The notes under the pieces: model-generated
What the model was told of the DNA's origin: nothing
The model's database searches: none
The model's input: only the letters and a program-made list of their open reading frames with translations
Translations under genes and position numbers: made by a program
Shown: positions 11,352 to 46,034 of the stretch, piece after piece
Numbering within the stretch: position 1 is the first letter of the stretch
How the letters are laid out: each line of letters starts with the position of its first letter
Assembly (NCBI GenBank): GCA_034414575.1
Contig: DAOULZ010000011.1
Span: 14,318-78,317, forward strand
Source of the DNA: Dehalococcoidales bacterium
GTDB taxonomy: Bacteria; Chloroflexota; Dehalococcoidia; Dehalococcoidales; UBA5760
Reading direction: 5' to 3'
Length of the DNA: 64,000 nucleotides

Positions 11352-11353
11352 GG

Positions 11354-13981: not shown

Positions 13982-14019
13982 GGTTATAGAAGCCCTGAGT
14001 TCTAGGGGGTGTAGTTGAA

Positions 14020-14890: not shown

Positions 14891-14977
14891 ATAGACAGGT
14901 GGCATTCATAACATCACCAGGGGAGAAAAGGCTAGTGTTGCTACCTTGGCATAGCCTCCAAGAGAGGCGGTATTACT

Positions 14978-15118: not shown

Positions 15119-15466
15119 GCTCAGCCATCGGGTTATTAAGCAAGCCTAGCTTTGGGTTATGACACTCTAGTTCAGTTTACCTTCCGTTAGCTTCATACCG
15201 CTGGACTCCTTTCGACCCCCCAAACTGATTTAAAAGGCTTGAGTCCCTTTTTCGCATCCCCCCGTCCCATCTTTTAGGCCGCTATTCTGGTTTAATGGTT
15301 CGCCAATACCCAAAAGTAGGAAGCAGGTTTTTTGTGGTAGTCATCCAGTCCGAGTGGCCAATTGGTTATCCTGTCGTTATCAAGCCGGTATCTGGTATAA
15401 TAATTATGGGGTAACCGACGAATACAGATTTCATCTCGGTGAGAATAAACAGACTAGGGAAAGAAG

Positions 15467-16101: not shown

Positions 16102-17376
16102 TCACAGTGTCCGGTAATAAAACCCCGCTTTTCCGGCTTCAGCAGCATCAAAGATGCCCCGGACATCTATTAGGACTGGGTTAGAATTCTGCATTCCCTT
16201 GAGGTCATTCAGGGTGAGACCGAGGAAGAAGGAATGAGCCACACTAACAATGACACCGTCGGCCTGGAATTGTTTTATCTCAGTCAGATCCCTCAGCAGT
16301 CTTATGCCGAACTCATTTTGAAAGCCGGCTCCGCTTAATAAAGGATCAAAGCCCGCTATTGCTACCCCGTATTCCCTAAGCTGCCTTACTACCCCCTTGA
16401 TCGGGCATTCCCGAGTGTCGGCAACATCTTTCTTATAGGTAAGCCCCATAATCAGCACCCGCGAGCCTTTAATGACCTTCCCCGCTTCGTTGAGGGCTTT
16501 TATGGTCATCTCAGCGACGTGCTTGGGCATGTGGTCATTGATGGCTCTGCCGGCCAGGATAACTTGAGGATGGTAACCAAGCTCTTTGGCCTTGTAAACT
16601 AGGTAATAAGGATCGACAGGAATACAATGCCCCCCGACCAGCCCTGGCGAGTAGCGGTGAAAGTTCCATTTAGTGGCTGCGGTATCGAGGACATCCTTGA
16701 TACTAAGACCCATCTCCGCAAATACTAGTGCTAGCTCGTTGGTGAGGGCTATATTTAGGTCGCGTTGTACATTCTCAACGACCTTAGCTGCTTCAGCCGT
16801 CTTTATATCCTTGGCCACAAAAATCTGCGCGCTTACTTTCCGGTAAAGCTCGGCAGCAAGTTTGGTAGTCTCCCGGTCCATCCCGCTAATTACCTTAGTA
16901 ATCTTATCTAAGGCGTGACGGTTGTCTCCAGGGTCTTCTCTCTCCGGGGAGTAGGCGAGCTTAAAATCTTGGCCGCACTTGAGTCCCGATTCCTGCTCCA
17001 GAATAGGCTTCACTATTTCCTCGGTGACACCGGGATAGACTGTAGACTCTAAAACGACTAAACTTCCTTTCTTCATAGTCTGGCCTACGGTTCTGGCAGC
17101 GCTTGTAACATAAGAGAGGTCAGGCTCTTTAGACCTTGTCACCGGGGTGGGAACACAGATGATAATAAAATCGGCTTTACCCATCTCCTGAGGATTATCG
17201 GTGAAATGCAAATCCTGACTATTATTATCTAGGCTCAGTTTTTTTATCTTGGCGCTGTCGGTGTCAAAACCGATGACTTCAAGGCTTTTGGCGAAGGCCC
17301 TGGCTAGAGGCAAACCGACATAGCCAAGACCGACGACGCCAATAATGGATTCATTGCGTCTCATCTTATTGTTCAT
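16102..17376 (-). CDS. nucleotide-sugar 6-dehydrogenase (WbpA/WbpO/TviB-like, UDP-N-acetylhexosamine dehydrogenase family)
   Basis: GVVGLGYVGLPLA NAD fold and catalytic GGHCIPVDP; 424 aa. It overlaps the upstream epimerase gene by 11 nt. Confidence 0.8.
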   Translation of the reverse strand: MNNKMRRNESIIGVVGLGYVGLPLARAFAKSLEVIGFDTDSAKIKKLSLDNNSQDLHFTDNPQEMGKADFIIICVPTPVTRSKEPDLSYVTSAARTVGQTMKKGSLVVLESTVYPGVTEEIVKPILEQESGLKCGQDFKLAYSPEREDPGDNRHALDKITKVISGMDRETTKLAAELYRKVSAQIFVAKDIKTAEAAKVVENVQRDLNIALTNELALVFAEMGLSIKDVLDTAATKWNFHRYSPGLVGGHCIPVDPYYLVYKAKELGYHPQVILAGRAINDHMPKHVAEMTIKALNEAGKVIKGSRVLIMGLTYKKDVADTRECPIKGVVRQLREYGVAIAGFDPLLSGAGFQNEFGIRLLRDLTEIKQFQADGVIVSVAHSFFLGLTLNDLKGMQNSNPVLIDVRGIFDAAEAGKAGFYYRTL

Positions 17377-19686: not shown

Positions 19687-20787
19687 TTGAAAAGGAGTCT
19701 CAAGCTGAAAGTAGCCGTAATTCTGGGAACTCGGCCCGAAATAATTAAAATGGCTCCGGTCATCAGGGAGCTGAAGAGCCAAAAGAAGGAGTATTTCATC
19801 CTCCATACCGGTCAGCATTATGCCTATAATTTGGACAGGCTGTTCTTCGATCAGTTAGGGCTCCCGGAGGCAAAGTACAACCTGGAAGTTGGCTCAGGTT
19901 CACATGCCGAGCAAACGGCGGGAATACTTATTGGTGTGGAGAAGGTCTTGGAGCAGGAATGTCCTGATATTGTGCTGGTTGAAGGTGATACTAATTCGGT
20001 TTTGGCCGCTGCCCTGGCCGCCACCAAGCTCCAAATGAGAGTGGGGCATGTCGAGGCCGGGTTGAGAAGCTATGACAGAAATATGCCCGAGGAAATAAAC
20101 CGTGTTCTGGCTGACCATATCTCTGACTTCCTCTTTGCCCCTACCGAGAAGTCGAGGGGGATTTTGATTGGTGAAGGTATTCCAGAAGGCAGGATATCGG
20201 TCACGGGTAACACTATCGTGGATGCCGTCTATGAAAACCTAGAAATTGCCAAAAGGAGGGCTAACGCTATCGGTACTGCTCGTGTCCTCGAGCCAGGAGA
20301 GTATTTTCTAGTCACACTTCACCGACCGGAGAATGTCGATAACCGTGCCCGCTTCGCCTCTATATTGGAGGGTCTTGATGAGGTAGCCCGCGAATTTGGG
20401 GTGCTGATGGTCTATCCTGCCCACCCCCGTTCCATAAATATGATGGGCCGCTTCGGTCTCCAGCCCAAAGAGGTCAGGCTCACTGAGCCGGTGGATTTCC
20501 TTGACTTCTTACGACTTGAGAGCGGTGCCAGGCTGGTACTGACCGACTCCGGTGGTGTTCAGGAGGAGGCCTGTATCCTCAGTGTACCCTGTGTCACCCT
20601 GAGGGATAACACCGAGCGGCCGGAAACGCTTGAGGTGGGCGCCAACATTCTGGCTGGCGTTTTACCGGAGCGGATACTTGAGTGCTCCGGGGTGATGCTC
20701 AGCCGCAGGAACGGTTGGCAGAATCCTTTCGGTGATGGCGAGGCGGGGAAGAGAATTGTCCGCGTACTGGAGGAGGCAATTCAGTGA
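19687..20787 (+). CDS. wecB: UDP-N-acetylglucosamine 2-epimerase (non-hydrolysing), WecB/WbpI-like
   Basis: GTRPEIIKMAPV, HVEAGLRS and DSGGVQEEA. The exact start is uncertain. Confidence 0.85.
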   Translation: MKRSLKLKVAVILGTRPEIIKMAPVIRELKSQKKEYFILHTGQHYAYNLDRLFFDQLGLPEAKYNLEVGSGSHAEQTAGILIGVEKVLEQECPDIVLVEGDTNSVLAAALAATKLQMRVGHVEAGLRSYDRNMPEEINRVLADHISDFLFAPTEKSRGILIGEGIPEGRISVTGNTIVDAVYENLEIAKRRANAIGTARVLEPGEYFLVTLHRPENVDNRARFASILEGLDEVAREFGVLMVYPAHPRSINMMGRFGLQPKEVRLTEPVDFLDFLRLESGARLVLTDSGGVQEEACILSVPCVTLRDNTERPETLEVGANILAGVLPERILECSGVMLSRRNGWQNPFGDGEAGKRIVRVLEEAIQ

Positions 20788-20803: not shown

Positions 20804-21724
20804 ATGAAGGTACTGGTAACTGGGGGGACGGGCTTTATCGGCTCCAACCTCGTCCCCGAACTGGAAAGTCGCGGTCACGAGGTCTGGGTCTGTGACCTAG
20901 GGCAGTCAGAGGGACCGAATTACATCCGTGGTGACGTCTCCCAATACCGTCAGCTTGAGAGAATATTTCAAGAACACGGCTTTGACTATGTCTACCACCT
21001 GGCGGCGGAATACGGGCGCTGGAATGGCGAAGACTATTATGAAAACCTGTGGCTGACCAACGTGGTGGGCACCAAGAATATGCTGCGGCTTCAGGAGAAG
21101 GAGGGCTTCCGGATGGTCTTCTTTTCCAGTGCCGAGGTCTATGGCGACTATGATGGGATTATGAGTGAGGACGTCATGGATAGGGTGCCGATAAAGCAGA
21201 TGAACGATTATGCCATGACCAAGTGGGTGGGTGAGCTTGCGGTGCTGAACTCGGCAGCCATGTTTGGTACCGAGACGGTGAGGGTGAGGCCGGTTAATGC
21301 CTATGGTCCTCATGAGCACTATAGCCCCTATCGTGGCGTGGTACCGAACTTTATCTATAAGGCGCTAAAGGACGAGCCCTATACGGTTTATCTCGGGCAC
21401 AGGCGTATTTTTGATTATGTCGAAGATACCTGCCGCACCTTTGCCAATATCATCGAGAATTTCAAGGCCGGAGAGGTCTACAACGTAGGTGGCAAGGAGG
21501 AGTGGGAGCATGAGATAAAGTACGTCTCTGACCTCATTCTGGAGCACCTGTCTAAGGATGACTCCGGGGTCACCTATAAAGAGGCGGAGCCATTCACCAC
21601 CAGAGTCAAGCACATGGACTTCTCCAAGGCGAGGCAGGACTTGGGGCATGAGCCTAAGACTCCTCTGGAAGCCGGGATACCAAGAACAATTGAATGGATG
21701 AGGAGGGTCTATGGCTTTAGTTGA
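20804..21724 (+). CDS. NAD-dependent epimerase/dehydratase (extended SDR)
   Basis: The ORF track starts at 20732. I prefer ATG at 20804 (MKVLVTGGTGFIGS) with GGAGG at 20795-20799. YAMTKWVGE provides the YxxxK motif. Confidence 0.8.
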   Translation: MKVLVTGGTGFIGSNLVPELESRGHEVWVCDLGQSEGPNYIRGDVSQYRQLERIFQEHGFDYVYHLAAEYGRWNGEDYYENLWLTNVVGTKNMLRLQEKEGFRMVFFSSAEVYGDYDGIMSEDVMDRVPIKQMNDYAMTKWVGELAVLNSAAMFGTETVRVRPVNAYGPHEHYSPYRGVVPNFIYKALKDEPYTVYLGHRRIFDYVEDTCRTFANIIENFKAGEVYNVGGKEEWEHEIKYVSDLILEHLSKDDSGVTYKEAEPFTTRVKHMDFSKARQDLGHEPKTPLEAGIPRTIEWMRRVYGFS

Positions 21725-22934
21725 AGAGTTACTGGGCTGCGAAGACATTAACCAGAATAGGGTGGAAGCGATGCGTAGGTGTACTAGGTGCATATTGCCG
21801 GAGACATTCCCGGGCATAGAGTTCGATGCCGGGGGAGTTTGTAACTATTGCCATAACTACCAGCCGATAGAGGTCCTGGGGGAGGGGGAGCTGGAAAAGG
21901 TACTGGCTCAGTACAGAAACAAAGGGGAACAATATGATTGCCTCGCCCCCATAAGCGGCGGGCGGGACAGTGCCTTTGTTCTCCATCAAATGGTTAAGAA
22001 ATATGAGATGAGGACGCTGGCCCTGACGGTTGATAGCGGTTTCATTTTGCCGGAGGGCTACCGAAACATTAAAAGAATAACGGAAGCCTTAAACGTGAAG
22101 CATGTTTTCCTGCGGGATGAAAAGCAGATTGAGACGGCGCGGCGTAATACTGAGATAAAGTTTCGGGGGTGGCTCAGGAAGCCTTCGATCCATACCATTG
22201 TCCCGGTGTTAAACAGCGGCGACAAAACGATGAACCTCCGTATGGCCAGATACGCCAAACAGAACAACATCCCGCTTATCATGGGGGGGAACGTGATTGG
22301 GAACTGCACCATTGAACAGGAGCATTGGAAGACAGGATTCCTGGGGGTTTTCCCTGATGAGCACGGCGTATACAGGCTGCCCGATAGGGGCAGGTTGCTG
22401 CTCTTATTCCTGCTCGAATATCTGAAAAACACCTCCAGCTTTAAGCTGCCCATTCTTAAGGAGTATATTACCGGGACGCTGGTTTACTTCTACGAGTCGC
22501 AGCTTAGACCGAAAGGGGTGAAACTCGTTGGCTTCTGGGACTATATCTACTGGAACGAGAGTGAGATTCTAGCCACGGTATGTAACCGGTTGGGCTGGTG
22601 GGGGGCAGCCGACCACACTACCACCTGGCGTATTGATGATAGTGCCTATCCGTTGATTAACTACCTTTACTACCGGTTAGTGGGCTTTACCGAGCACGAT
22701 GAAATGTACAGCAAGATGATTCGCGAGGGCCAGATTACCAGAGACGAAGCCCTGAAAAGGGTCTCGGCCGACCACCAGTCCCAGTGGATACACGGCCCCA
22801 GGCTGCTTACCAGTCTGGAAGAGTTGGGGGTTACCAAGGAGCATTTAGATGAGGCCCTGGAGGGATATCGGGGAAAACTCTGGAGGAAGTATTTTAAGAG
22901 AACTTCGGCAGCAGTCTTAGGGGAGGCGTTTTAA
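21711..22934 (+). CDS. N-acetyl sugar amidotransferase (WbpG/PseA-like PP-loop enzyme)
   Basis: N-terminal CTRCILPETFPGIEFDAGGVCNYC zinc-ribbon-like motif and the PP-loop PISGGRDSAF; 407 aa. Confidence 0.7.
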   Translation: MALVEELLGCEDINQNRVEAMRRCTRCILPETFPGIEFDAGGVCNYCHNYQPIEVLGEGELEKVLAQYRNKGEQYDCLAPISGGRDSAFVLHQMVKKYEMRTLALTVDSGFILPEGYRNIKRITEALNVKHVFLRDEKQIETARRNTEIKFRGWLRKPSIHTIVPVLNSGDKTMNLRMARYAKQNNIPLIMGGNVIGNCTIEQEHWKTGFLGVFPDEHGVYRLPDRGRLLLLFLLEYLKNTSSFKLPILKEYITGTLVYFYESQLRPKGVKLVGFWDYIYWNESEILATVCNRLGWWGAADHTTTWRIDDSAYPLINYLYYRLVGFTEHDEMYSKMIREGQITRDEALKRVSADHQSQWIHGPRLLTSLEELGVTKEHLDEALEGYRGKLWRKYFKRTSAAVLGEAF

Positions 22935-27412: not shown

Positions 27413-29293
27413 ATGTGTGGTATATGTGGCATAGGGCACAGGGGGCATGATGTTTCGCCCCAGAGTCTGGGGGCTATGGTTAAGGCTATGGGGCACCGCG
27501 GGCCGGATAAAGCTGGTACCTGGTATTCTCAGGGGGTGGGATTGGGCAATGCCCGGTTGGCGGTTATCGACCTTAGCTCGGCCGGCAACCAGCCGATGAC
27601 CAACGAAGACGGCACGGTTTGCATCACTTATAACGGTGAGATTTATAACCTGGCTGAGCTTCGAGAAAGGCTAATCCGCAAAGGACATCGCTTCAGTTCC
27701 TTAACCGATACTGAGGCTATCATCCACCTTTATGAGGAGTACGGTAAGGGTTGTCTTGGCTATCTTCGAGGAATGTTTGCTTTCGCTATCTGGGATGAAA
27801 GGCGTAAGAGCCTGCTGCTAGCGAGGGATAGAATAGGGATCAAACCTCTATACTATACTTATGACGGAAGCAGGCTCATCTTTGCCTCAGAGATTAAAGC
27901 TCTCCTTTCTAGCGGGCTTATCCCTAGAGAATTGAATAATCAGGCGATAGCGGCCTTTTTCTCCCTGGGCTCGGTGCCGCCGCCACTCACTATCTTAAAG
28001 GGGGTAAATGCCCTGCCCCCGGGGCACTGTCTGGAGGTGAAGGATGGTCGGTTGCATACCCGAAGTTACTGGGAGCTCTCCTTCCAACCGAAAGAGGAGA
28101 TTGGGGAAAACGAGGCTGCTGCTGAACTCAGGCGGCTGCTGGAGCAAGTCATGAGTTCTCACGCCGTAAGTGATGCCCCATTAGGTGCCTTTCTGAGCGG
28201 CGGGGTTGACTCCTCGGTTATAGCCGCTATGCTGAGCGGGTTGGTTAGCAGACCGCTGAAGACCTTCAATGTTAGCTTCCCCGAGGTAGCCTACAATGAG
28301 TCCTACTTCGCTGGGCTGGTGGCAGAAAGGTTCGCCACCGACCATACTGACTACAAGGTTACCTGTGGTGATCTTAAAAACCAGCTGCCGGCCATAATCC
28401 AGGCTATAGATCAGCCGACCGTAGATGGGATTAATACCTACTTTGTCTCTAAAGCTGCTAAAGAAGCCGGGCTTACGGTGGCCCTCTCCGGGAATGGGGG
28501 TGACGAGCTCTTCTGTGGTTACCCGAGCTTTCGGGGAATCCCCAGAATTCACCGGCGGTTGGCTCCGCTAGGATATATCCCGGTCGGTATAAGGAGATTA
28601 CTCGGTAGATATCTCATCAAGGGCATACCTGGGGGCCGTACTCAGAAGCTGGCCAATCTGATGCCCACTACCCTCACCATAGAAGACATCTACTTCGTGT
28701 GGAACTCTTACTTTGCTAATGGTAACTTGTCTTCCCTGATTCATCCCGATCTCTGGTACCAGCCAGACCTCTCCCTGGGATTGGAATATGTCAGAGGGGT
28801 AGGCAGCAGGTGTAGCGGTATTAACACGGTGGACAGAATATCCTTCCTGGAACTGATGATTTATCTAAGCAACCAGCTACTGCGTGATACCGATGTCATG
28901 AGTATGGCTCATTCCCTAGAGGTAAGAGTCCCTTACCTGGACCATATTCTGGTGGAGTTCGTTTCCCGATTGCCCTCTGATCTCAGAGAGGGTAACGGAC
29001 AGCCAAAGAAGTTGTTGCTTAAGGCGGTTAGCGACCTACTGCCCCAGGAAGTTATTGACAGAAAGAAAATGGGATTTGGGTTTCCCTTTCGTCCCTGGCT
29101 TAAGGGGGACTTGAGGCCTTTGGTTGCCGAGGTTCTGTCCGCAGAGAACGTGGGCCGGCTCGGCATCCTTCAACCTCAGGTAGTTGACTCCTTGTGGCAG
29201 GGTTTTCTCCAGGAGAAGAGAGGCATTAACTGGTCCATCGTTTGGCTATTATTTATCTTTCAATTCTGGTGTAAGGAGGTATTGAAGCCATGA
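27413..29293 (+). CDS. asnB: asparagine synthase (glutamine-hydrolysing) family amidotransferase, WbpS-like
   Basis: N-terminal MCGI nucleophile and the PP-loop FLSGGVDSS; 626 aa. Its stop overlaps the next start (ATGA). Confidence 0.85.
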   Translation: MCGICGIGHRGHDVSPQSLGAMVKAMGHRGPDKAGTWYSQGVGLGNARLAVIDLSSAGNQPMTNEDGTVCITYNGEIYNLAELRERLIRKGHRFSSLTDTEAIIHLYEEYGKGCLGYLRGMFAFAIWDERRKSLLLARDRIGIKPLYYTYDGSRLIFASEIKALLSSGLIPRELNNQAIAAFFSLGSVPPPLTILKGVNALPPGHCLEVKDGRLHTRSYWELSFQPKEEIGENEAAAELRRLLEQVMSSHAVSDAPLGAFLSGGVDSSVIAAMLSGLVSRPLKTFNVSFPEVAYNESYFAGLVAERFATDHTDYKVTCGDLKNQLPAIIQAIDQPTVDGINTYFVSKAAKEAGLTVALSGNGGDELFCGYPSFRGIPRIHRRLAPLGYIPVGIRRLLGRYLIKGIPGGRTQKLANLMPTTLTIEDIYFVWNSYFANGNLSSLIHPDLWYQPDLSLGLEYVRGVGSRCSGINTVDRISFLELMIYLSNQLLRDTDVMSMAHSLEVRVPYLDHILVEFVSRLPSDLREGNGQPKKLLLKAVSDLLPQEVIDRKKMGFGFPFRPWLKGDLRPLVAEVLSAENVGRLGILQPQVVDSLWQGFLQEKRGINWSIVWLLFIFQFWCKEVLKP

Positions 29294-33721: not shown

Positions 33722-34225
33722 ATGCTTAGTAATCTTTCGATACAGACCCTAACCAAGCAGGTAGCAACCGCGAATATTGATGATTTAGTCAGGATTGTGA
33801 AACAGCATCCACTTCAATATTGGGAACAACCGCATTTTCTAGTGGATCTGCCGGAGAAGTGGTTCTTTAGCCAGGTCGCCTTTGTTGATGACGAAGTCGT
33901 TGGCTATATAATCGCATCTCAAAAAACAGCCGATAGTGTTCACATCCATAAATATATGGTAGATGAGAAGTATACCGGTCACAGAATCGGAAAGTACATG
34001 TTATCGGGGTTAAACGCAAAGTGCTATCAGAGGGATATCGAAACCGTAACCTTGAGGATTTACGAAGACAATGTTAGGGGGATAAGATTTCATTCTCGAA
34101 ACGGTTTTCAGGTAGTCTCCCAGAGGGATACCGCCTCGGGGGTCAATATTATGATGGCGGCTACAACTGAAACCATTGAAAAATGCCTGTCATCATCTCT
34201 AGCAGGATGCGCTCAAAGAAAATGA
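33722..34225 (+). CDS. GNAT family N-acetyltransferase
   Basis: 167 aa. VVGYIIAS...IHKYMVDEKYTGHRIGKYML...NVRGIRFHSRNGFQVV covers GNAT motifs A and B. Confidence 0.7.
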   Translation: MLSNLSIQTLTKQVATANIDDLVRIVKQHPLQYWEQPHFLVDLPEKWFFSQVAFVDDEVVGYIIASQKTADSVHIHKYMVDEKYTGHRIGKYMLSGLNAKCYQRDIETVTLRIYEDNVRGIRFHSRNGFQVVSQRDTASGVNIMMAATTETIEKCLSSSLAGCAQRK

Positions 34226-35286
34226 GTGAAAAGATAAATCTCTTATTAACCGCGGTGGGGTGCCCGGGGGGGCGCTCCATAATCAATAGCCTAGGAGAGG
34301 ATAACAACCTCCGCATCGTGGGCACTGATATGAGGGGGGAGGTGGCGGCAAGGTATCTGGTGGATAGGTTTTATCAGGTTCCGCCGGGGGAAAGCGAGCA
34401 CTATATTGATAAGATGCTCAGGATTGTGGCCAAGGAGGGTATTGATGTCATGCTACCCCTGGCGACCTTTGAACTCGGGCCTATTTCTAAAAACAAGGGC
34501 CTATTTCTACAGGAAGGCTGTAGAATCTGCATTTCTGACCATGAGGCAATAACAATCGCCAATGACCGTTCAAAGCTGTATGCCACCTTTGCCAGCGAGG
34601 ATTTTATCCCCAGCTTCAGGATACCAGCTGATTGGGACGACCTGGAGACTAAAATGAAAGAGCTCGGCTTCCCGCAGAAGAGGGTGGTCATAAAACCCTT
34701 TGTCAGTCACGGTAGTATTGGTCTCAGGGTGATCGGTGGTGATCTAAATCTGTTTGAGCTGTACAGAAACACCAAGCCCAATTCGGTATTTACTAACCAG
34801 AACATTTTGAAGGAGACCCTCCGGGATAGAAAGATAGATAGCCTGGTGCTTACGGAATACCTGCCCGGGAAGGAGTATGGAGTTGACCTGCTTTTGAACC
34901 CTGGAACACACCGGGTAATCGCCGGTATCGTCCGGGATAATGGTGAGGTTGAGCTAAGCGGCGTGAGCAGAGGGGAATTGGTTGAGGATGACAGGCTATT
35001 TGCCATTGCCAAATATGTGGCTGAGACACTGAAGCTAAGTTACGCGGTGAACATAGATTTTAAGCTGGATGGGAACCAAGCTCCCAAAATAATCGAAGTG
35101 AATCCGAGGTTACCAGCTACTCTCTACCTGGCCACTGCTGCCGGCTTAAATCTTCCCTTGTTGTCAGTATATCTAGCCCTGGGCAGGGAAATCAGAGTTC
35201 CCCGGGTGGCCACGGGGTTAAGAATATATTCGTACCGTGGTTTTATCGTGGTCGGGGCTAACAACGAGGTGCTCGGTAATGTTTAG
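34222..35286 (+). CDS. ATP-grasp ligase (CarB-like fold)
   Basis: The ORF track starts at 34183. I prefer ATG at 34222, which forms an ATGA overlap with the GNAT stop. VIKPFVSHGSIGLRVI, LTEYLPGKEYGVDLL and IIEVNPRLP are ATP-grasp hallmarks. Confidence 0.75.
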   Translation: MSEKINLLLTAVGCPGGRSIINSLGEDNNLRIVGTDMRGEVAARYLVDRFYQVPPGESEHYIDKMLRIVAKEGIDVMLPLATFELGPISKNKGLFLQEGCRICISDHEAITIANDRSKLYATFASEDFIPSFRIPADWDDLETKMKELGFPQKRVVIKPFVSHGSIGLRVIGGDLNLFELYRNTKPNSVFTNQNILKETLRDRKIDSLVLTEYLPGKEYGVDLLLNPGTHRVIAGIVRDNGEVELSGVSRGELVEDDRLFAIAKYVAETLKLSYAVNIDFKLDGNQAPKIIEVNPRLPATLYLATAAGLNLPLLSVYLALGREIRVPRVATGLRIYSYRGFIVVGANNEVLGNV

Positions 35287-35363
35287 CTTCCGGTATGCTA
35301 CCGATCGCCTGTTTATCTCAGGGGTAACCAAATTACAGGAGTAAAGGAAATAGCCGAGGAGAT

Positions 35364-36368
35364 ATGACTAAGAATATTGCTGTTATCGGCGGTGGCTACT
35401 GGGGGAAAAACTTGGTGCGTAATTTTGCCACCCTCGGTGCCCTCTGTACTATCTGCGATGCGGATGCCGGAGTCTTGGAGTCGCTTATCTCTCAATACCC
35501 TGGGGTAAATAGCAGCCCCGATTATCATGAGGTGCTGGCTGATGAAGATGTACGGGGGATTGTAATCGCGACTCCAGCGGCGTGCCACTACTCTATGGCC
35601 AAAGAAGCACTGCTGGCTGGTAAAGATGTCTTCGTGGAAAAGCCGCTTGCCGAGAGCAGTAAGGATGCCCAAGAGTTGACCGAGCTGGCTACGGGACGGG
35701 GAAGGTTCCTAATGGTTGGGCACCTGCTTGTTTATCACCCGGCGGTTCAATTACTGAAACAGTATATTAAGTCCGGTGAGCTGGGTGAAATCTACTACCT
35801 CTATTCCACCAGGGTCAATCTGGGCCAGATACGACGGGACGAAAGTGCCTTATGGCGGCTGTTGCCTCACGATATTGCATTGTTTATTTATCTGCTCGAT
35901 CAGGTTCCAAGCGTTATTTCAGCTCAGGGTTCTTCTTATGTCCAGGATGGTTTAGTGGATGTAGTCTTTATCGCCCTGAGATTTGGAACCGTATTAGCTC
36001 ACGTTCATGCCAGTTGGCTTGATCCGCACAAAATACGGCAGCTCACCGTAGTTGGCAGCAAGAAGATGGCCATCTTTGATGATATGGAGGTAAGCACTAA
36101 ATTAAGAATACATGATAAGTATGTCGTGGCCAATCGTAAAGCTGCTTCTCCAGCAGGAGCCTTGACTTTCAGGTCGGGAGAAGTAACACTCCCTCAAATA
36201 GACCTTACCGAGCCGCTACACCTAGAGTGCCAGCATTTCATCCACTGCCTTGAGCGCAGATGCCAGCCGTTGTCTGATGGCAAGCAGGGTTTAGAAGTGG
36301 TGCGAATTCTGGAGGCAATTCAGAAGGCAATGGAGAAAAAGAAGGAATTTGAGATTGGGGTTCTGTGA
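35364..36368 (+). CDS. Gfo/Idh/MocA-family sugar oxidoreductase (WbpB-like)
   Basis: IAVIGGGYWGKN Rossmann fold and EKPLA motif; 334 aa. Confidence 0.75.
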   Translation: MTKNIAVIGGGYWGKNLVRNFATLGALCTICDADAGVLESLISQYPGVNSSPDYHEVLADEDVRGIVIATPAACHYSMAKEALLAGKDVFVEKPLAESSKDAQELTELATGRGRFLMVGHLLVYHPAVQLLKQYIKSGELGEIYYLYSTRVNLGQIRRDESALWRLLPHDIALFIYLLDQVPSVISAQGSSYVQDGLVDVVFIALRFGTVLAHVHASWLDPHKIRQLTVVGSKKMAIFDDMEVSTKLRIHDKYVVANRKAASPAGALTFRSGEVTLPQIDLTEPLHLECQHFIHCLERRCQPLSDGKQGLEVVRILEAIQKAMEKKKEFEIGVL

Positions 36369-36724
36369 AGGCAAGGGATTTTCTTAAGATTGTTATCGAT
36401 TTGGACGGGACGATTCTTGAAGAGAAACCAATAAAAGAGAAGGCCAGGGCAGTCCCGCTTCCAGAGGCGGTAGAGGCAGTTAATCGGCTGTATGAGATGG
36501 GTCATGTGATCATAATCTACAGCGCTAGAGGAGACCATGATTTAGAACTTACCTTGGGGCAACTCAGCAGGTTTGGGGTTAAGTACCACCATTTAGTACT
36601 GGGTAAGCCCAGGGGTGACATTTTTATTGATGATCGGGCTTTAACCTTTACAGGTTGGGATAAGGATTGGCGTAAACTGCTCAGCTTAATAGACCAAAAG
36701 ATGAAGCAACCTTTCGGGGTGTGA
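36365..36724 (+). CDS. small capless HAD-superfamily phosphatase
   Basis: GTGA overlap with the upstream gene. Motif I is VIDLDGTI, motif II YSAR, and motifs III/IV are GKPRGDIFIDD; 119 aa. Confidence 0.65.
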   Translation: MKARDFLKIVIDLDGTILEEKPIKEKARAVPLPEAVEAVNRLYEMGHVIIIYSARGDHDLELTLGQLSRFGVKYHHLVLGKPRGDIFIDDRALTFTGWDKDWRKLLSLIDQKMKQPFGV

Positions 36725-36728
36725 ATCG

Positions 36729-37673
36729 GTGAAAGAAGTAACGGTTCTAGTATCGGCGGCAGGTTCTACTAACGGCGTAAATGTTATCCAGGGTCTGCGA
36801 GCCCAGAATGATTATGACGTGGGGATTGTCGCTATTGATTCCGACAGCAACGCCGCTGGCTTGTACCTCGCTGACAGGTACGAAATAGCACCCCCAGTTT
36901 CAGCGCCAGCCTTTAAGGATTTTGTTTTGACTGTCTGCAAGGCTTGCGGTGTTGATATGATAATCCCCACCCATTCGGTTGAGCTACCCTTTTTCAGCTC
37001 TAACCAGAAGTTATTTAGCGATTGGGGAGTAAGAACCGTCATATCTCCGCTGGAGAAGATTAAGATATGCGATGACAAGCTGCAAATAGCGGAATTCATT
37101 CGTAGGCTCGGGGTGAGGCATCCTAAGATCTATGAGTTGAACAATATCCCTGATAATGAATTCCCTCTGTTCGTTAAGTCGCGCTTTGGGTCAGGATCGG
37201 CATACGCCCGCAGGGTGGAAACTGGCGAGGAGCTAGGTTTTTACATCGGTAGAACCCCCAACCCGATTGTCCAGGAATATATCAGCGGAACCGAGTACAC
37301 AGTTAATGTTATCTCAGATTATAACGGCAGGGTGGTTGGTCTAGTACCTTTGCGGCGAGTAAAAGTGAGGGGTGGTCTGGCGGTAGTGGCTCAGGTAGAA
37401 GTAAATCCAACGATAGCTGGAGAGACCAGGAGAATAGTAGAGGCCCTGGGACTGGTTGGTCCGTCCAACGTGCAGGTAATAAAAGATGGTGAGGAGTTGG
37501 TATACCTGGAGGTAAACCCGAGGTTTGCCTCCGGGGGGATGCCACTAGCAGCCGGGGCTGGCTTTAATATTCCGCTACTGCTGATGAAGCTGGGGCTGGG
37601 TGAGCCGATCGGTGAACTGGATATTGAGGATGGAAAGAAGATGATCAGGTTTTGGGATGCCATCGTAGTCTAA
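36729..37673 (+). CDS. ATP-grasp ligase (second copy, divergent)
   Basis: FVKSRFGSGSAYARRV, VQEYISGTEYTVNVI and YLEVNPRFASGG. Confidence 0.75.
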   Translation: MKEVTVLVSAAGSTNGVNVIQGLRAQNDYDVGIVAIDSDSNAAGLYLADRYEIAPPVSAPAFKDFVLTVCKACGVDMIIPTHSVELPFFSSNQKLFSDWGVRTVISPLEKIKICDDKLQIAEFIRRLGVRHPKIYELNNIPDNEFPLFVKSRFGSGSAYARRVETGEELGFYIGRTPNPIVQEYISGTEYTVNVISDYNGRVVGLVPLRRVKVRGGLAVVAQVEVNPTIAGETRRIVEALGLVGPSNVQVIKDGEELVYLEVNPRFASGGMPLAAGAGFNIPLLLMKLGLGEPIGELDIEDGKKMIRFWDAIVV

Positions 37674-37730
37674 ATAGTCCCCAATACTAAGCAGAGCTTC
37701 TGAAGGGAAGCCGGGGAAGCACGACAGGAG

Positions 37731-38870
37731 ATGAGAGTGATGAGGACTGTCTTGGTTGACCTCAAGGCTCAATACAGGTCAATAAAAGAAGAAGTTGACG
37801 CTGCTATCCGCCGGGTGCTGCAGCGGGGAGAATTTATCCTCGGTCCCGAGGTTAAGACTCTTGAATCGGAGATAGCTGCTTACTGCGACACGAAGTACGC
37901 CGTCGGGGTTGCCTCGGGTACTGATGCCCTGCAGTTAGCGCTCCTTGCCTGCGGTATCAAGCCTGGTGACGAGGTTGTCACTACCCCCTTTACCTTCATC
38001 GCTACTGCTGAGGCCATAGCTAAGTGTGGTGCTGTCCCGGTATTCGTTGACATAGACCCCAGAACATATAATCTCGATCCAATAAAGGTTAGGTCTGGGA
38101 TGACTGGAAGGACAAAGGCCATCCTTCCGGTTCATCTCTATGGTCAGCCGGCAGAAATGTCATCGATTCTGGCGCTGGCTAAAGAGCATGGACTAAAGGT
38201 CATTGAAGACTGTGCGCAAGCTTTGGGAGCGGGGTATAAAGGAAAGAAGATCGGTTCTTTAGGGGAGGCTGGCTGTCTCAGCTTTTTCCCCAGCAAGGTG
38301 CTCGGGGCTTATGGGGATGGGGGGATGGTAGTCACCAGTAGCCCGGAAATTGCGGAAAAGGTAGCGATACTTCGAAATCATGGCAGCCGGGAAAAATATC
38401 ATCACCTCACCCCCGGATTTAACAGCCGTCTTGATTCTCTTCAGGCGGCTATCCTCAGGGTCAAGCTAAGATATCTTGAGCGATGGAACTCCGAGCGGCG
38501 ACGAAAGGCGGAGCTTTATTCACAGCTTCTCGGGGGGGTAAACGGTGTTGAACCACCCTATGTGGCACCTTACAGTTACCACATCTTCAATTACTACACT
38601 ATCCGCATCATGAGTTCTCGGGGAGAACGGGATAAGCTCCGAGAACATCTTGGTGCTGAGGGTATTGCCAGCGCCATTTACTATCCGCGCTCTCTTCATC
38701 TACAAAAAGTCTATAAATTCTTGAGCTACCAACCAGGGGACTTGCCGGAGAGCGAACGGGCTCAGGAACAGGTTCTCTCCCTACCTATATATCCAGAAAT
38801 GAGTCAGGAGCAGGTAGCAGGAATAGCAGATGCCATCAAGTCGATAACCTCTAATTTGTTTACTCTTTAG
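37731..38870 (+). CDS. DegT/DnrJ/EryC1/StrS-family PLP sugar aminotransferase (WbpE-like)
   Basis: [16 protein letters not shown] and [15 protein letters not shown] (PLP lysine region); 379 aa. Confidence 0.85.
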
Positions 38871-38885
38871 TGAGGAGGAAACTGA

Positions 38886-39644
38886 ATGACAGAAAACGGA
38901 AGGGACCTTTTCACTCTTGGCTATTATGAGGAATTTGTGCGCCGGCTATGTGAAGGGTATCACTTTTCCTCTTTCCATGAGGCTAAGAAAGTCATCGGGC
39001 AGGTAGATGAACCCCTGGTGGTTATGAGACACGACATTGATTCGGATTTGGGGGCGGCTCAGAGAATGTCTTCGCTTGAAAAAGAGCTCGGAATTCAGGC
39101 TACCTATTTCTTCATGGTTCGCTGCCCTTTATATAATCTCTTTAGCGGTGATGGTTCGGAAAAAACGAGGCGGATATTGGCAGACGGACATCACTTTGGA
39201 CTTCACTTCGATTGTGCCCTTTATCCAGATATCGGCACCAATAATCTTAGCGATTACATTTCAAGGGAGTGCGCCCTGTTAGAGGGATTCTTTGGGCAGC
39301 CGGTTGAGTCCGTTAGCTTCCACAGACCGGGGGATCTGGAGCTGGGGGGCGTGGAGTTAGAGAGATGGCCCAATACTTATGAAAGGGTGTTCCTGGAGAG
39401 GTTCGAGTATTTCTCTGATTCGCGAGGCAACTGGGTTAGGGGTAACCCCCTGGAATCTGAGGCATTCGCGGAGAGGAAGAATCTGCATATACTAGTGCAC
39501 CCTTTGTGGTGGACTGAGTCGCCGATGACTCCCTATGAGCATCTTGTTAGCCTCGTTCAGTCTATTAAAGGTCAGTCTGAACAATATATATCTGCAAACT
39601 GTCAGGTATGGAATGAGGCTAGAGAAGGAAGGAAATCTGGTTGA
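38886..39644 (+). CDS. polysaccharide deacetylase-like protein (NodB-fold, WbmS-like?)
   Basis: VVMRHDIDSDLGAAQRMSSLEKELGIQATYFFMV and HFGLHFD resemble divergent deacetylase-like proteins of O-antigen loci. This is a weak call. Confidence 0.4.
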   Translation: MTENGRDLFTLGYYEEFVRRLCEGYHFSSFHEAKKVIGQVDEPLVVMRHDIDSDLGAAQRMSSLEKELGIQATYFFMVRCPLYNLFSGDGSEKTRRILADGHHFGLHFDCALYPDIGTNNLSDYISRECALLEGFFGQPVESVSFHRPGDLELGGVELERWPNTYERVFLERFEYFSDSRGNWVRGNPLESEAFAERKNLHILVHPLWWTESPMTPYEHLVSLVQSIKGQSEQYISANCQVWNEAREGRKSG

Positions 39645-42778: not shown

Positions 42779-44110
42779 CTATAGCTTGCTAAACTTAGCT
42801 TGAAATGAACCCCACAGATTTCTAGCCGTCCTTGGGTAAAACCTTATGTCTTCAGGCTTGACTAACAGGACGTCTTTTGGCTTGAGTCCTGATAACCTCG
42901 AGAAAAAGAAAAACACGATGAAAAAGCTCAATGAGTATGATATGGTGGTAGCTAGCGCTGCTCCGGCGGTTCCCCATTTGGGAATCAATATCAGATTCAG
43001 CCCGATGTTTACCCCCAGGGATGCCAGTGAGGCATACATAGCAAATGCGGGCTTACCGATACCGGCTAGGTAGGCTGCGCTAACTGAGGTGAGACTAACT
43101 GCGATAACGCCGGGCAGAAGAATCAGTAGTGGCGTGAAGCTGGGGAGGAAAGCCGGGCCGTATAAAATTCCAATTGCCCACCTGCCAATAACCGCTAATC
43201 CGAGACAGGCTAAGAGAGTGACCAGCAAGGTATGCCTGAGCAGTGTTCCCGTCATTTCCCTAGATTCATCTGGATCAGAAGAGGCGACTGCAGGGAATAG
43301 GATTGTTTTTACCGGCCCCGAAAGCATCCAGACCATTTCGGCTATTCCTACGGCGATGGAGTAGAATCCGACCTGGGTGGCGCCCATGAAATAGTTTACT
43401 AAGAACATATCTGACCGGTAGTGTAGGAAGGTAAAAATATTAGCCATGTGTATTTTAATCCCATAATGTAGCGACTCTTTTAGTAGGCCTCTTTTCAAGC
43501 GAAACCTGACCTCGGTCAGCCTATTTACTAAGCAGAAGGAAGAAGCAAACATGGCTATCGAGATGAAGATAGAGACTAGAATAAGCGAGGATAGTCCTTT
43601 GTTCAGGATAAGTAGGACCAGTGCCGAACCGCCCAGCAGCAGCGCGGGTTGGAGGATGTTAAGGAAATTAAATTGCTTTACTTTAAATTTCACCAGCAGG
43701 ATATGTCGGAAGTAGACGGGGGTGATAGAAAAGGGTATGGCCAGAAGAACCAGGTGAATCAATGAAGGATCCACATCTTGAAAAACCGGGGCAAGGAAAG
43801 ACTTATAGGCGAGCAAAAATAGGATGGCGAGAGAAGCCCCGGCGGTAAATCCAAATGCGAGCGAGTTAGAGGCGATATCGGTAAGACTAAACCTCTTGCC
43901 CCCAATAAAGTAGGTATTGGCCCCAGCAAGTCCCAGGTTTCCCAATTGAAATAATAAGCCGGGCACTAGCAGCACCAGGGCATATACACCTTTATCATGC
44001 GGCCCCAGCGCTCTGGCGACGATAATGGAGGTGGGTATGCCTAAAGCAGCAATGAGGATGTTGGAAAAGAATACTGTAGAAATGTCTTTCGTTAGATGAA
44101 ACCTATTCAC
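42779..44110 (-). CDS. wzx: Wzx-like polysaccharide/oligosaccharide flippase (MOP superfamily)
   Basis: 443-aa polytopic protein with a typical polysaccharide-biosynthesis-protein profile. It overlaps the upstream gene by 8 nt. Confidence 0.7.
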   Translation of the reverse strand: MNRFHLTKDISTVFFSNILIAALGIPTSIIVARALGPHDKGVYALVLLVPGLLFQLGNLGLAGANTYFIGGKRFSLTDIASNSLAFGFTAGASLAILFLLAYKSFLAPVFQDVDPSLIHLVLLAIPFSITPVYFRHILLVKFKVKQFNFLNILQPALLLGGSALVLLILNKGLSSLILVSIFISIAMFASSFCLVNRLTEVRFRLKRGLLKESLHYGIKIHMANIFTFLHYRSDMFLVNYFMGATQVGFYSIAVGIAEMVWMLSGPVKTILFPAVASSDPDESREMTGTLLRHTLLVTLLACLGLAVIGRWAIGILYGPAFLPSFTPLLILLPGVIAVSLTSVSAAYLAGIGKPAFAMYASLASLGVNIGLNLILIPKWGTAGAALATTISYSLSFFIVFFFFSRLSGLKPKDVLLVKPEDIRFYPRTARNLWGSFQAKFSKL

Positions 44111-46034
44111 CGCTATTCATTACCTGAGGAAGGTAAGTAGTTACTTCGCCGTTACTATATATCTTGTTATACCCTGTTTCTTCTTCTAAGCTCCTTATCT
44201 TATACTTTTGGATTTCGTCGAGCTTAGTGCCATAGGTTGAATACCCCATTTTCCCTTTGGGGGATTGAACCCTGAATGGATAATTGAGAATATTCTCTCT
44301 TATGACGAGGGCGTTTTCGACCTCTAGTCCGGCATCGATAAATGGATATATATCTTCGGCATTCCTATTAAGGGCCAGCTCAATATAGCTACCGTAGGAT
44401 GAGTCAGAGACTATTTCTCCATCGTAGAATTCAGTAATTCTACCTGCGGCCGCAATCTCAGATTCGAACCAGTAACCTCTATATGATGCCTCTTTGTTAA
44501 TGATGGGGTTGCTATGCCCAGTTAGGGAGGTAGATATCATAGTGAAGGCAAGAACCAGAGCGATTACGGTGACGCCGAATAGCTGTGCCGGTTTGCCCTT
44601 AGCAACACTATGGATCAGAAAGATTCCCTGGGCAGCCGAAATGGCCATGATTACATAAATGGATGCTGACCATCTGCCAGGGAGTAGGATATCAGGGTTA
44701 CCCAATAGACCGCTGGCAAACAAAACTAGATTCAATCCAATAAAAGCACCGACTAGTGAGAGAGCATATCGGTAGTTCTTCCGGTGTTCCCAGAAATATA
44801 AAGCGGCCAGAACCGATAGGCTTAAGAGACAGGTAAAGCCTACGTTTTCAAGCAAAACCGAGGTAACATCGCTTGACAGCGCCGTGATTTCAAAGGCGGG
44901 AATATTAAAAGCGTTGGCAATTATTTTCCCCAATTCCGAAAACCAGTACCGCGATATGTATACCCAATAGCCCAGTAGAATGAAGATGAACCAAAGGGGG
45001 GTCGAGAATGATATATTGCCTGTTAGACTTCTTTTAGACCGGGAGAGGAATTGGTTTACAAAGTAGATTGACAAAATTACGACTAGGAATATAGTGGCGG
45101 AGATAGTATGCGTATACACCATGAGCAGTGACAAACATAGCCACAGCAGTACGAAGGTGATGTTGGCACTGGAGGTGCGCGATTTTATTAGCACGAGGAG
45201 TAGAACGAGGAGGAGACCGATACCAAGCGTCATGGGTATGATGTAATACCCCCAGAAAAGGAAGGGAGCACTGAACCCGGCAAACAAGGCTCCGAGTAAG
45301 GCTACTTTATTACCACCCAGGACAATCCTTCCGATGCAGAATAGGCTTAACAGGCTTGTGACTTGATATACCCCTATCAGCATCATTGAGGTATTGATAT
45401 TGAGGTTGGTTGTTGATTTCACGGCGGCCACGACAAAGTGCATGGCCAGGAAATCTCGATAGTAATCATAGCTGGTTGAGGGGATGTGGGATTCAGCTAG
45501 CATATCGCTCACCAAGCGTGAATGTTCAAAAAAGTCCTGTCCGATATTGGGGAAGAAATAGTGTGGAATCGCTATCAAAAGTAAAGAGGTGATTATTATC
45601 TTGGCTAAGGTAAGGTAGGGATACTGGCCCCTTCCCTCTGGCATCAGGAATATCTCTATTACCAGGATGAGACACATGGCAGTAGCGCAGTAAAAATAGC
45701 TTACCGGGATAGTATAGGCATCCGCGTTAACGGCGGTGAACAGGATATAGGAGAATAGTGAGAAGAAAAGCACGTTTAAAGCCACGGTGGGCTTGGGGAT
45801 ACTCGATAGTGGTTTGGCGGTAAGCACGGCGTTCGGGTTGGGTGAGATACGCTTACGCAGCAGCAAATAGGCAGCACTGCCCGCAATCAGGGCGATACTT
45901 TTGGGTGTCGGCCGGCCCCCGCTAACAAAAACGTCGAAGGCGAGGAAGACAAGACCGGCACCTAGAATAAGCATAGGAACGATCCGGGGACAGGAGTCTG
46001 CTTTGGCAGAAGGGCTTACAATGTTATCTTGCAT
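44103..46034 (-). CDS. large polytopic membrane protein with a C-terminal soluble domain (polymerase / GT-C-like; resembles archaeal DUF2206-type proteins)
   Basis: 643 aa. About 450 aa of TM helices precede a ~130-aa soluble tail. No WWDYG oligosaccharyltransferase motif is seen. Confidence 0.5.
   Translation of the reverse strand: MQDNIVSPSAKADSCPRIVPMLILGAGLVFLAFDVFVSGGRPTPKSIALIAGSAAYLLLRKRISPNPNAVLTAKPLSSIPKPTVALNVLFFSLFSYILFTAVNADAYTIPVSYFYCATAMCLILVIEIFLMPEGRGQYPYLTLAKIIITSLLLIAIPHYFFPNIGQDFFEHSRLVSDMLAESHIPSTSYDYYRDFLAMHFVVAAVKSTTNLNINTSMMLIGVYQVTSLLSLFCIGRIVLGGNKVALLGALFAGFSAPFLFWGYYIIPMTLGIGLLLVLLLVLIKSRTSSANITFVLLWLCLSLLMVYTHTISATIFLVVILSIYFVNQFLSRSKRSLTGNISFSTPLWFIFILLGYWVYISRYWFSELGKIIANAFNIPAFEITALSSDVTSVLLENVGFTCLLSLSVLAALYFWEHRKNYRYALSLVGAFIGLNLVLFASGLLGNPDILLPGRWSASIYVIMAISAAQGIFLIHSVAKGKPAQLFGVTVIALVLAFTMISTSLTGHSNPIINKEASYRGYWFESEIAAAGRITEFYDGEIVSDSSYGSYIELALNRNAEDIYPFIDAGLEVENALVIRENILNYPFRVQSPKGKMGYSTYGTKLDEIQKYKIRSLEEETGYNKIYSNGEVTTYLPQVMNSGE

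Follow-up and report, generated by a model that had tools for sequence, protein, structure and literature searches.

What reaction is carried out by a gene cassette that combines two ATP-grasp ligases with a HAD phosphatase and a set of sugar-modifying enzymes? Such a cassette, of seven genes, occupies positions 33722-39644 of the 64-kb stretch of Dehalococcoidales DNA analyzed here (contig DAOULZ010000011.1, positions 14,318 to 78,317), which we call the window. An earlier note, written from the sequence alone, had proposed that it runs twice through the logic of the Campylobacter jejuni HS:2 capsule locus, in which an amidoligase (Cj1438) joins a phosphorylated amine to a uronate carboxylate and a HAD phosphatase (Cj1435) removes the phosphate. 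We find that the cassette is a composite of two modules, each conserved independently elsewhere. It more likely represents two widely conserved modules for N-acyl remodeling than two Campylobacter-style amidations of uronate carboxylates, and we see about an even chance that the two modules together alter the N-acyl substituents of a UDP-2,3-diamino-2,3-dideoxy sugar for a surface glycan. The seven open reading frames (ORFs), with AG1 and AG2 for the first and second ATP-grasp proteins, are as follows.

33722..34225, + strand: GNAT N-acetyltransferase, 167 amino acids; module 1 (PF00583, 4.6e-13)
34222..35286, + strand: ATP-grasp ligase AG1, 354 amino acids from the ATG at 34222; module 1 (PF15632, NF009402)
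35364..36368, + strand: Gfo/Idh/MocA oxidoreductase, predicted UDP-GlcNAc(A) 3-dehydrogenase, 334 amino acids; module 2 (PF01408)
36365..36724, + strand: predicted capless mini-HAD phosphatase, 119 amino acids; module 2 (HAD motifs, fusions with AG2 relatives)
36729..37673, + strand: ATP-grasp ligase AG2, 314 amino acids, GTG start at 36729; module 2 (PF15632, NF009405)
37731..38870, + strand: DegT-family sugar aminotransferase, C-3 type by its best matches, 379 amino acids; module 2 (PF01041)
38886..39644, + strand: gene 7, CE4/NodB-fold deacetylase-like protein, 252 amino acids, ATG at 38886 (AlphaFold and Foldseek)

All seven ORFs were confirmed at these coordinates, in the order GNAT-AG1-oxidoreductase-HAD-AG2-DegT-deacetylase. 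The tight coupling described in the earlier note was verified in the sequence at each of its four junctions: an ATGA overlap between GNAT and AG1 (34222-34225), a GTGA overlap between the oxidoreductase and the mini-HAD (36365-36368), a 4-nt gap between the mini-HAD and AG2 (ATCG, 36725-36728), and a 15-nt gap between DegT and gene 7 (38871-38885) that contains GAGGAGG. The longer gaps, of 77 and 57 nt, separate AG1 from the oxidoreductase and AG2 from DegT. The domain calls held as well, six by profile search against Pfam and NCBIfam and the label "deacetylase-like" for gene 7 by predicted fold, and the two ATP-grasp proteins are indeed divergent (26% identity, E 4e-20). They were said to flank the phosphatase, which is right inasmuch as the HAD gene lies between AG1 and AG2, but the oxidoreductase gene also lies between AG1 and HAD.

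Gene fusion and conserved adjacency show that the mini-HAD and AG2 are coupled as a ligase-phosphatase pair. AG2 matches PF15632 (1e-19), NF009405 (1.7e-56), and the PDB entry 2pn1 (5e-28); like AG1, it also matches PF02655 and PF21360, and both proteins consist of a PylC-like N-terminal domain followed by ATP-grasp_3. In the AG2 family, the ExNxR motif of the ATP/Mg site is conserved, with N263 and R265 invariant and E261 nearly so, and K117, Q182, and E189 are invariant too; AG1 carries IIEVNPR, an ExNxR-type ATP-grasp site. The mini-HAD has the four HAD motifs (DLDGT, SAR, GKP, and IDD), which align with those of 1xpj, 9iqw, and its fused homologs. These homologs are part of six AG2 relatives (P0002, P0004, P0005, P0019, P0025, and P0026; 50-72% identity), HAD-ATP-grasp proteins of 422-439 amino acids in which the N-terminal ~120 residues are a mini-HAD that matches the one in the window at 6e-42 and keeps the catalytic motifs.

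The coupling extends across genomes. We scanned one genome per species for AG2 relatives, kept 80 of 500, and clustered their neighborhoods together with locus L001 and the window, which gave 74 loci. A HAD gene lies within 7 kb of the AG2-like gene in 57 of the 74 loci, and in 51 it is adjacent or fused. It accompanies all 25 AG2-like genes that have a small phosphoglycosyltransferase nearby and 15 of the 17 that have an oxidoreductase, whose orthologs abut the AG2-like gene. The 10 best genome matches to AG2 are mostly of this oxidoreductase-linked kind, the best of them in Methanomethylovorans and Methanolobus (38-40% identity). The arrangement in L001 is 6-dehydrogenase, oxidoreductase, HAD-AG2 fusion, and DegT; in L091, the oxidoreductase abuts a HAD-AG2 fusion and DegT is found ~3 kb upstream. 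Many genome loci resemble L001 in having DegT next to the unit of oxidoreductase, HAD, and AG2. The ligase-phosphatase couple is strongly supported because HADs of three different types have been recruited to the same ATP-grasp family in these 57 loci. Partner HADs elsewhere are capped HAD_2 proteins (PF13419); their resemblance to phosphoglycolate phosphatase, PpaX, or CTE7 is consistent with a small phospho-acid as substrate. The proposed pairing of an ATP-grasp ligase with a HAD phosphatase is thus borne out for one couple, AG2 and the mini-HAD, but the same logic does not operate twice: AG1 has no HAD partner but is coupled to the GNAT, and its homologs at the other loci examined all adjoin a PIG-L deacetylase.

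Several related arrangements were seen in passing. L001 contains, at 12722-15388 (- strand), a second ATP-grasp gene (AG2-like, 1e-31) beside a HAD_2 protein and a radical SAM enzyme, which is a further ligase-phosphatase pair with an extra tailoring enzyme. A NeuB-type nonulosonic acid synthase is encoded near AG2-like/HAD pairs in 13 loci (cluster 9), including L007 (2436-3572), and the module may also decorate sugars of the pseudaminic or legionaminic type. In a Methanolobus metagenome-assembled genome (L005, 11002-12736), the DegT gene beside an AG2-like gene is itself split into two ORFs, and no HAD ORF was found in the ~770-bp gap; this copy of the module may be decaying.

Could the mini-HAD instead belong to a different step, as a sugar-phosphate phosphatase like EcbF/BcbF, BT0820, or GmhB, while the ATP-grasp enzymes add unphosphorylated amino acids? 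Its matches lean faintly that way: the best PDB hit, 9iqw (1.2e-9), is labeled a "capsule biosynthesis protein," 1xpj follows at 9e-5, and there are weak curated matches to the BT0820 family (2.8e-7) and to the capsule biosynthesis phosphatase model TIGR01689 (3.7e-4). These curated matches all fall far below their cut-offs, however, the mini-HAD is fused in frame to an AG2 ortholog in the six relatives, unrelated HAD types hold the same position in most AG2-family loci, and neither phosphoribosyl- nor heptose-pathway genes were seen among the annotated genes of the window. We regard this alternative as very unlikely. Two specific candidates were rejected on their scores. For a capsule ribose-phosphate phosphatase (EcbF/BcbF, TIGR01689), the score is 20 bits where 162 are required, and the ligase fusion also speaks against it. 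A GmhB heptose bisphosphate phosphatase, which the earlier note had named as an outcome that would defeat its idea, reaches 15.5 bits against a cut-off of 178 (NF006506, E 0.009).

We then compared the cassette with the Campylobacter enzymes, taking from PMC12409886 (supplement) the sequences of Cj1435 and of Cj1438C, the C-terminal amidoligase of Cj1438. The proteins belong to other families. Cj1438C is a TupA-like ATP-grasp protein (PF14305, 1.3e-36), a family that neither AG1 nor AG2 matched in Pfam, in contrast to their membership of PF15632; its comparison with AG1 and AG2 gave E > 1 in blastp, 0.079 (AG1) and 1.4 (AG2) in phmmer, and a probability of 0.2% in hhalign with the AG2 family profile. 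Cj1435 belongs to PF12710 (4.9e-19), a HAD fold with a cap for which the mini-HAD, at 119 amino acids, has no room, and the two gave E values of 0.57 in phmmer and 5.5 in blastp. The supposed kinship with Cj1438 and Cj1435 therefore finds no support in blastp, phmmer, or profile comparison, and the resemblance is one of chemical logic only, namely, formation of an ATP-dependent amide with a phosphorylated partner followed by dephosphorylation by a HAD enzyme (PMC12409886). The two systems also differ in orientation, since the sugar contributes the carboxylate in C. jejuni HS:2, whereas in the cassette it probably contributes the amine, as the following evidence indicates.

That evidence bears on an alternative in which each ATP-grasp enzyme joins the C6 carboxylate of a uronic acid to a phosphorylated amine (ethanolamine phosphate, serinol phosphate, phosphoserine, or phosphothreonine), which the HAD enzyme then dephosphorylates. 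Several points speak for it. The ligase-phosphatase coupling is real, a UDP-N-acetylhexosamine 6-dehydrogenase is encoded in the window and 6-dehydrogenases in L001 and L091, the Campylobacter biochemistry is established (PMC11800379, PMC12409886), and Methanococcus N-glycans carry threonine amide-linked to mannuronic acid (PMC11407970), so amino-acid uronamides do occur in methanogens. Across the 74 loci, however, a UDP-sugar 6-dehydrogenase is present in only 8, whereas DegT is present in 43, and we favor N-acylation of an amine because the AG2 family tracks aminotransferases rather than 6-dehydrogenases. AG1, moreover, lacks the HAD partner that this alternative requires of each ligase, and Cj1438C and Cj1435 show no detectable similarity to the window proteins.

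A second line of evidence against the carboxylate comes from fusions. The AG2 family includes phosphoglycosyltransferase-ATP-grasp fusions (P0055, P0105-P0113, and P0207); P0055 aligns with 100% of the length of AG2 at 32% identity (E 2.5e-38), and P0055, P0207, and AG2 share NF009405 as best NCBIfam model. In L092, the gene order is PglF-type 4,6-dehydratase, DegT, transferase-ATP-grasp fusion, HAD_2, glycosyltransferases, Wzy, and flippase. The sugar made there is a 6-deoxy sugar without a C6 carboxylate, so the ligase cannot amidate that carboxylate. The same architecture is known from Neisseria, where PglB2 consists of a phosphoglycosyltransferase with an ATP-grasp domain in place of the acetyltransferase domain of PglB, and its presence changes the 4-acetamido group to the 4-glyceramido group of a 2-acetamido-trideoxyhexose on pilin (PMC11130364, PMC6959607). 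PglB2 thus genetically determines an N-linked glyceramido group in a 4-amino-4,6-dideoxy-sugar pathway, which again speaks against the uronate carboxylate as the acylation site. The gene pglB2 is always followed by a conserved hypothetical gene, ORF8 (PMC3338715, PMC11130364), a position that parallels that of the HAD gene directly after the fusion in L092; we predict that the gene after pglB2 encodes a HAD phosphatase. AG2 and PglB2 have in common that an ATP-grasp enzyme replaces the N-acetyltransferase after DegT, to yield a non-acetyl N-acyl group on an amino sugar. They differ in that AG2 is free-standing or fused to HAD and is paired with a C3 dehydrogenase and aminotransferase, while the ATP-grasp domain of PglB2 is fused to the transferase and works with a 4,6-dehydratase and a C4 aminotransferase. 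Altogether, AG2 most likely acts on the amine of the sugar, and we consider amidation of the uronate carboxylate unlikely.

The remaining enzymes of module 2 are those expected for making a 3-amino sugar. DegT (PF01041, 1.4e-127) has as its best PDB matches 2oga (4e-104), QdtB (2e-101), and WbpE (1e-94); the last two, its best characterized matches, are presumably C-3 enzymes. Together with the conserved oxidoreductase partner, these sugar aminotransferase matches lend no support to the suggestion that the pyridoxal-phosphate enzyme supplies an amine phosphate, as Cj1436/Cj1437 were taken to do with the amine in C. jejuni. The production of serinol phosphate by the oxidoreductase and DegT was considered and is unlikely, as DegT matches WbpE and QdtB and the pair is a standard 3-amination unit. 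The oxidoreductase (PF01408, 7e-22) had been called WbpB-like, and its predicted role agrees with that name, but its best NCBIfam score is to the archaeal UDP-GlcNAc 3-dehydrogenase model NF040723 (2e-46), at 158.8 bits against a cut-off of 450. Its top PDB matches are 3c1a and 7bvj, the latter of which we take to be GnnA, and the best named family among solved structures is only Gfo/Idh/MocA. Homologs of it (~1e-52 in the case of L089) are fused to a hexapeptide acetyltransferase in L086 and L089.

What the module does not contain is a hexapeptide 3-N-acetyltransferase. UDP-GlcNAc3NAc(A) is made by WbpA/B/E/D/I in Pseudomonas and by MMP0350-0357 in Methanococcus. The island around the cassette shares with these pathways a predicted pair of 3-dehydrogenase and C3 aminotransferase (DegT), comparable to WbpB/WbpE, MMP0352/0351, and GnnA/GnnB, along with a 6-dehydrogenase, a 2-epimerase, and a WbuX/WbpG-type amidotransferase; it differs in that the cassette has no hexapeptide 3-N-acetyltransferase and in that the oxidoreductase scores below the cut-off of the archaeal equivalog. 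Three queries revealed no hexapeptide-acetyltransferase homolog in the window between ~29.7 and 44.7 kb, and none was seen among the ORFs at 14.6-19 kb, which were inspected by eye. Within 7 kb of the AG2-type genes, such a homolog is found in 3 of the 74 loci and in none of the oxidoreductase-type ones. AG2 and the HAD enzyme thus appear to occupy the place of the usual acetyltransferase of the WbpD or MMP0350 type, and on this reading PglB2-type ATP-grasp N-acylation would be grafted onto a WbpB/WbpE-type pathway. In L001, a 64-amino-acid ORF between the oxidoreductase and the HAD-AG2 fusion (4417-4611; also L002, 1001-1195) matches the hexapeptide-repeat family at 1.2e-8 and may be a remnant of an acetyltransferase displaced by the ligase module. 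WbpB-WbpD-like fusions of oxidoreductase and hexapeptide acetyltransferase occur in L086 (1-754) and L089 (1-1150), a few genes away from PIG-L and AG1-like genes.

Module 2 can then be pictured as follows. By homology, the oxidoreductase would act on UDP-GlcNAc or the corresponding uronic acid, oxidizing C3, and DegT would transaminate the product to a 3-amino sugar. From a small phosphorylated acid, AG2 would form an acyl phosphate at the carboxylate and pass the acyl group to the 3-amino group; removal of the ester-bound phosphate by the mini-HAD would then give an N-glyceroyl substituent or a similar hydroxyacyl one. The donor that we favor is 3-phosphoglycerate, whose acyl phosphate would be 1,3-bisphosphoglycerate. 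3-Phosphoglycerate occurs in abundance, and its acyl phosphate is part of ordinary metabolism. Two reports name 1,3-bisphosphoglycerate among the compounds that acylate amino groups (PMC10915168, PMC8795555).

AG2 might instead N-acylate the sugar amine with O-phosphoserine or O-phosphothreonine, which would leave a seryl or threonyl group after dephosphorylation, or with 2-phospholactate, phosphoglycolate, or 2-phosphoglycerate. The partner HADs resemble phosphoglycolate phosphatases and other HAD-IA enzymes and no glycerate-specific enzyme. For the synthesis of F420, methanogens produce 2-phospho-L-lactate. Sugars bearing N-glycolyl and N-aminoacyl groups have been described (PMC5378307). 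Against such donors, glyceramido is the sole genetically assigned product of this ATP-grasp architecture, and a methanogen is documented to carry a diaminoglucuronic acid acylated with glycerate, so that we judge another donor to be rather improbable and keep 3-phosphoglycerate as the favored one. A glyceroyl unit is also drawn from a phosphorylated glycolytic intermediate, with a phosphatase step of the HAD fold, by glyceryl-ACP synthases of the FkbH type. FkbH, however, loads the thioester of an acyl carrier protein (ACP), uses no ATP-grasp enzyme, and is unrelated to sugar N-acylation.

Module 1 has a different composition. AG1 matches PF15632 (8e-23) and NF009402, a PRK12767-type model (1.9e-32), and a 354-amino-acid protein, P0224, is identical to it over its whole length. 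Its homologs form a set of their own and were examined at seven loci representing six distinct arrangements (L084, L085, L086, L087/L088, L089, and L090). A PIG-L deacetylase adjoins the AG1 homolog in all six (identities 45-53%, and 68% in L090), and most also have a gene for a capping enzyme nearby: four arrangements have a GNAT gene, one has a formyltransferase gene. The GNATs beside AG1 homologs in L087 and L090 are homologous to that of the window (1e-31 and 1e-13, respectively). This association suggests a sequence in which a sugar is deacetylated, re-acylated, and capped, and the exchange of acetyl- for formyltransferase suggests that the acid ligated by AG1 carries a free amine, that is, that it is an amino acid. 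In such a scheme, drawn solely from conserved neighborhoods, a deacetylase would free a sugar amine, AG1 would ligate a carboxylic acid, probably an amino acid, to it, and the GNAT would cap the new amino group on the installed acyl. For both modules, we infer the acyl donors, the acceptors, and the positions acylated.

Deacetylation followed by reacylation is familiar from mycothiol synthesis by MshB, MshC, and MshD and from pathways of the teicoplanin type. As proposed for the AG1-type triad, which recurs, mycothiol synthesis uses a PIG-L-type deacetylase to free the amine of GlcNAc, an ATP-dependent ligase to attach an acid, and a GNAT for capping. The mycothiol ligase, however, is a homolog of Cys-tRNA synthetase and AG1 is an ATP-grasp enzyme, and the window has a CE4-fold protein instead of PIG-L. 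In L087 and L088, at 1930-4060, a PIG-L/GNAT/AG1-like triad occurs on its own, away from any glycan genes. Its neighbors are a Fic gene, an M1 peptidase, and a TonB-dependent receptor, and the triad resembles a small-molecule pathway built on the logic of mycothiol or bacillithiol synthesis.

Which protein of the window could act as the deacetylase? No PIG-L (PF02585) homolog is encoded in the 64 kb (best E 0.96), and related loci use PIG-L, so that we propose gene 7 for this step. Gene 7 has no match in Pfam or NCBIfam. Its alignment-based AlphaFold model (predicted local distance difference test score, pLDDT, 95.6) is predicted to have a CE4/NodB deacetylase fold: the top 13 Foldseek matches are all CE4 deacetylases, with template-modeling scores of 0.36-0.45 and a probability of 1.0 for the first 12. 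The family, which comprises 3314 representative clusters and has no Pfam model, shows 10 invariant residues (R48, H49, D50, D52, H107, S144, H146, D178, H205, and W208), and its RHDxD, H102/H107, SxHRP, and H205 elements resemble, by eye only, CE4 motifs 1, 2, 3, and 5. The family profile matches CE4 enzymes in the PDB weakly (E 0.04-0.15). Relatives of gene 7 (P0300-P0449) are often fused C-terminally to a UDP-GlcNAc 2-epimerase (P0304, P0314, and P0327) or to DegT (P0310), which points to UDP-sugars as substrates. The idea that gene 7 stands in for the PIG-L of module 1 is a weak one.

Several observations weigh against the picture of two N-acyl remodeling modules. We found no assay of either ATP-grasp subfamily in the literature within reach. 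None of the 120 relatives of P0055 listed, out of 4221, is from Neisseria, and the link to PglB2 is one of domain architecture and family with no direct alignment. The 6-dehydrogenases of the window, L001, and L091 make a uronate carboxylate available as an alternative acceptor. The mini-HAD, being capless and similar to BT0820 and capsule phosphatases, differs in type from the partner HADs elsewhere; the GNAT could be the 3-N-acetyltransferase of a classical pathway; and the gene 7 family is present in none of 92 related loci, its fusions not being to ATP-grasp proteins.

The cassette sits inside a glycan island of ~30 kb with GT2 and GT4 glycosyltransferases, SDR epimerases, an AsnB-type amidotransferase, a flippase, and a methyltransferase. 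Four of the island genes bear on the sugar that the cassette would modify.

16102..17376, - strand: UDP-N-acetylhexosamine 6-dehydrogenase (TviB/WbpA-like), uronic acid formation (TIGR03026, 1.8e-114; TviB model, 1.4e-106)
19687..20787, + strand: UDP-GlcNAc-type 2-epimerase (PF02350, 1.9e-107)
21711..22934, + strand: WbuX/WbpG-type N-acetyl sugar amidotransferase, acetamidino formation (TIGR03573, 1.7e-44)
27413..29293, + strand: AsnB-type glutamine amidotransferase, candidate for C6 uronamide formation (PF00733, 1.4e-82; GATase_7, 1.7e-47)

The AsnB- and WbpG-type amidation genes reported upstream of the cassette are thus present, by profile match. The upstream 6-dehydrogenase, AsnB-type, and WbuX-type enzymes would introduce uronic acid, uronamide, and acetamidino features, respectively, and a uronamide could be formed by the AsnB-type enzyme.

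This setting also bears on whether the ATP-grasp enzymes act outside glycans altogether, in a peptide, cofactor, or Ter-type nucleoside-like metabolite pathway. PF15632, the best Pfam model, is named "ATP-grasp in the biosynthetic pathway with Ter operon," and the models for PylC, MfnD, and archaeal Ddl-like proteins are matched weakly. Yet the genes are embedded in an island of ~30 kb that encodes glycosyltransferases, nucleotide-sugar enzymes, and a flippase; the family neighbors of AG2-like genes are DegT, oxidoreductase, phosphoglycosyltransferases, and NeuB; and no phosphoribosyltransferase, TerD, or TelA was seen among the annotated window genes. A role outside glycans is therefore hardly credible, and the peptide or cofactor pathway that the earlier note had entertained as a counter-case gives way to a context of glycan synthesis. 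The Ter-operon metabolite pathway suggested by the family name was ruled out on the same context.

Other features of the window are listed here for completeness. The base composition of the window shows no sharp island boundary, and no tRNA genes were found in its 64 kb. A DUF1616 protein is encoded (profile match). Abutting the flippase gene, a 643-amino-acid ORF (44103-46034, - strand) without a match in Pfam or NCBIfam may be an unrecognized polymerase or oligosaccharyltransferase-like membrane protein, and a 680-amino-acid ORF (51395-53437, - strand) has no match in NCBIfam, the only library searched with it. Divergent DegV/FakB-like paralogs (6806-7678, - strand, and 8243-9148, + strand) lie beside an ABC transporter operon (9262-13981) of the branched-chain amino acid or urea type. 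At 62443-63789 is an AblA-like lysine 2,3-aminomutase (5.5e-140), an enzyme typical of the synthesis of the osmolyte N-epsilon-acetyl-beta-lysine in methanogens. Taken by themselves, this enzyme, the DUF1616 protein, and the best genome matches to AG2 would point to a methanogen-like archaeal host.

How far might the pairing of ATP-grasp and HAD reach beyond this cassette? Our literature searches returned no paper linking an ATP-grasp enzyme with a glyceroyl sugar and a HAD enzyme, nor an ATP-grasp enzyme that adds amide-linked amino acids to O-antigens or capsules. We tentatively propose, with well under even confidence, that the pair is a general and previously undescribed route to N-glyceroyl sugars and that both N-acetyl groups of a diamino uronic acid are replaced here, one by N-glyceroyl and the other by N-(N-acetylaminoacyl). 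If this is true, the ligase would make enzyme-bound 1,3-bisphosphoglycerate and acylate the amine of a nucleotide sugar with it, and a dedicated HAD enzyme would remove the 3-phosphate, which would explain the glyceramido-acetamido-trideoxyhexose (GATDH) of Neisseria, the diaminoglucuronic acid with glycerate in the N-glycans of methanogens, and perhaps Pse5Am7Gra.

Non-acetyl N-acyl groups such as glyceroyl, glycolyl, and aminoacyl shape the antigenicity and immune evasion of bacterial and archaeal surface sugars, the switch between diacetamido and glyceramido sugars on meningococcal pili being an example. The enzymology of these groups is largely unknown, and the basis of N-glyceroyl substitution has been called "a major challenge" (PMC5378307). 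A phospho-acid ligase acting with a phosphatase offers a testable mechanism for a family of thousands of proteins, and the deacetylase, ATP-grasp, and capping enzyme of module 1 offer a second recurring triad. If these proposals are true, N-acyl decorations would become predictable from genomes, and the families would provide enzymes for making modified nucleotide sugars.

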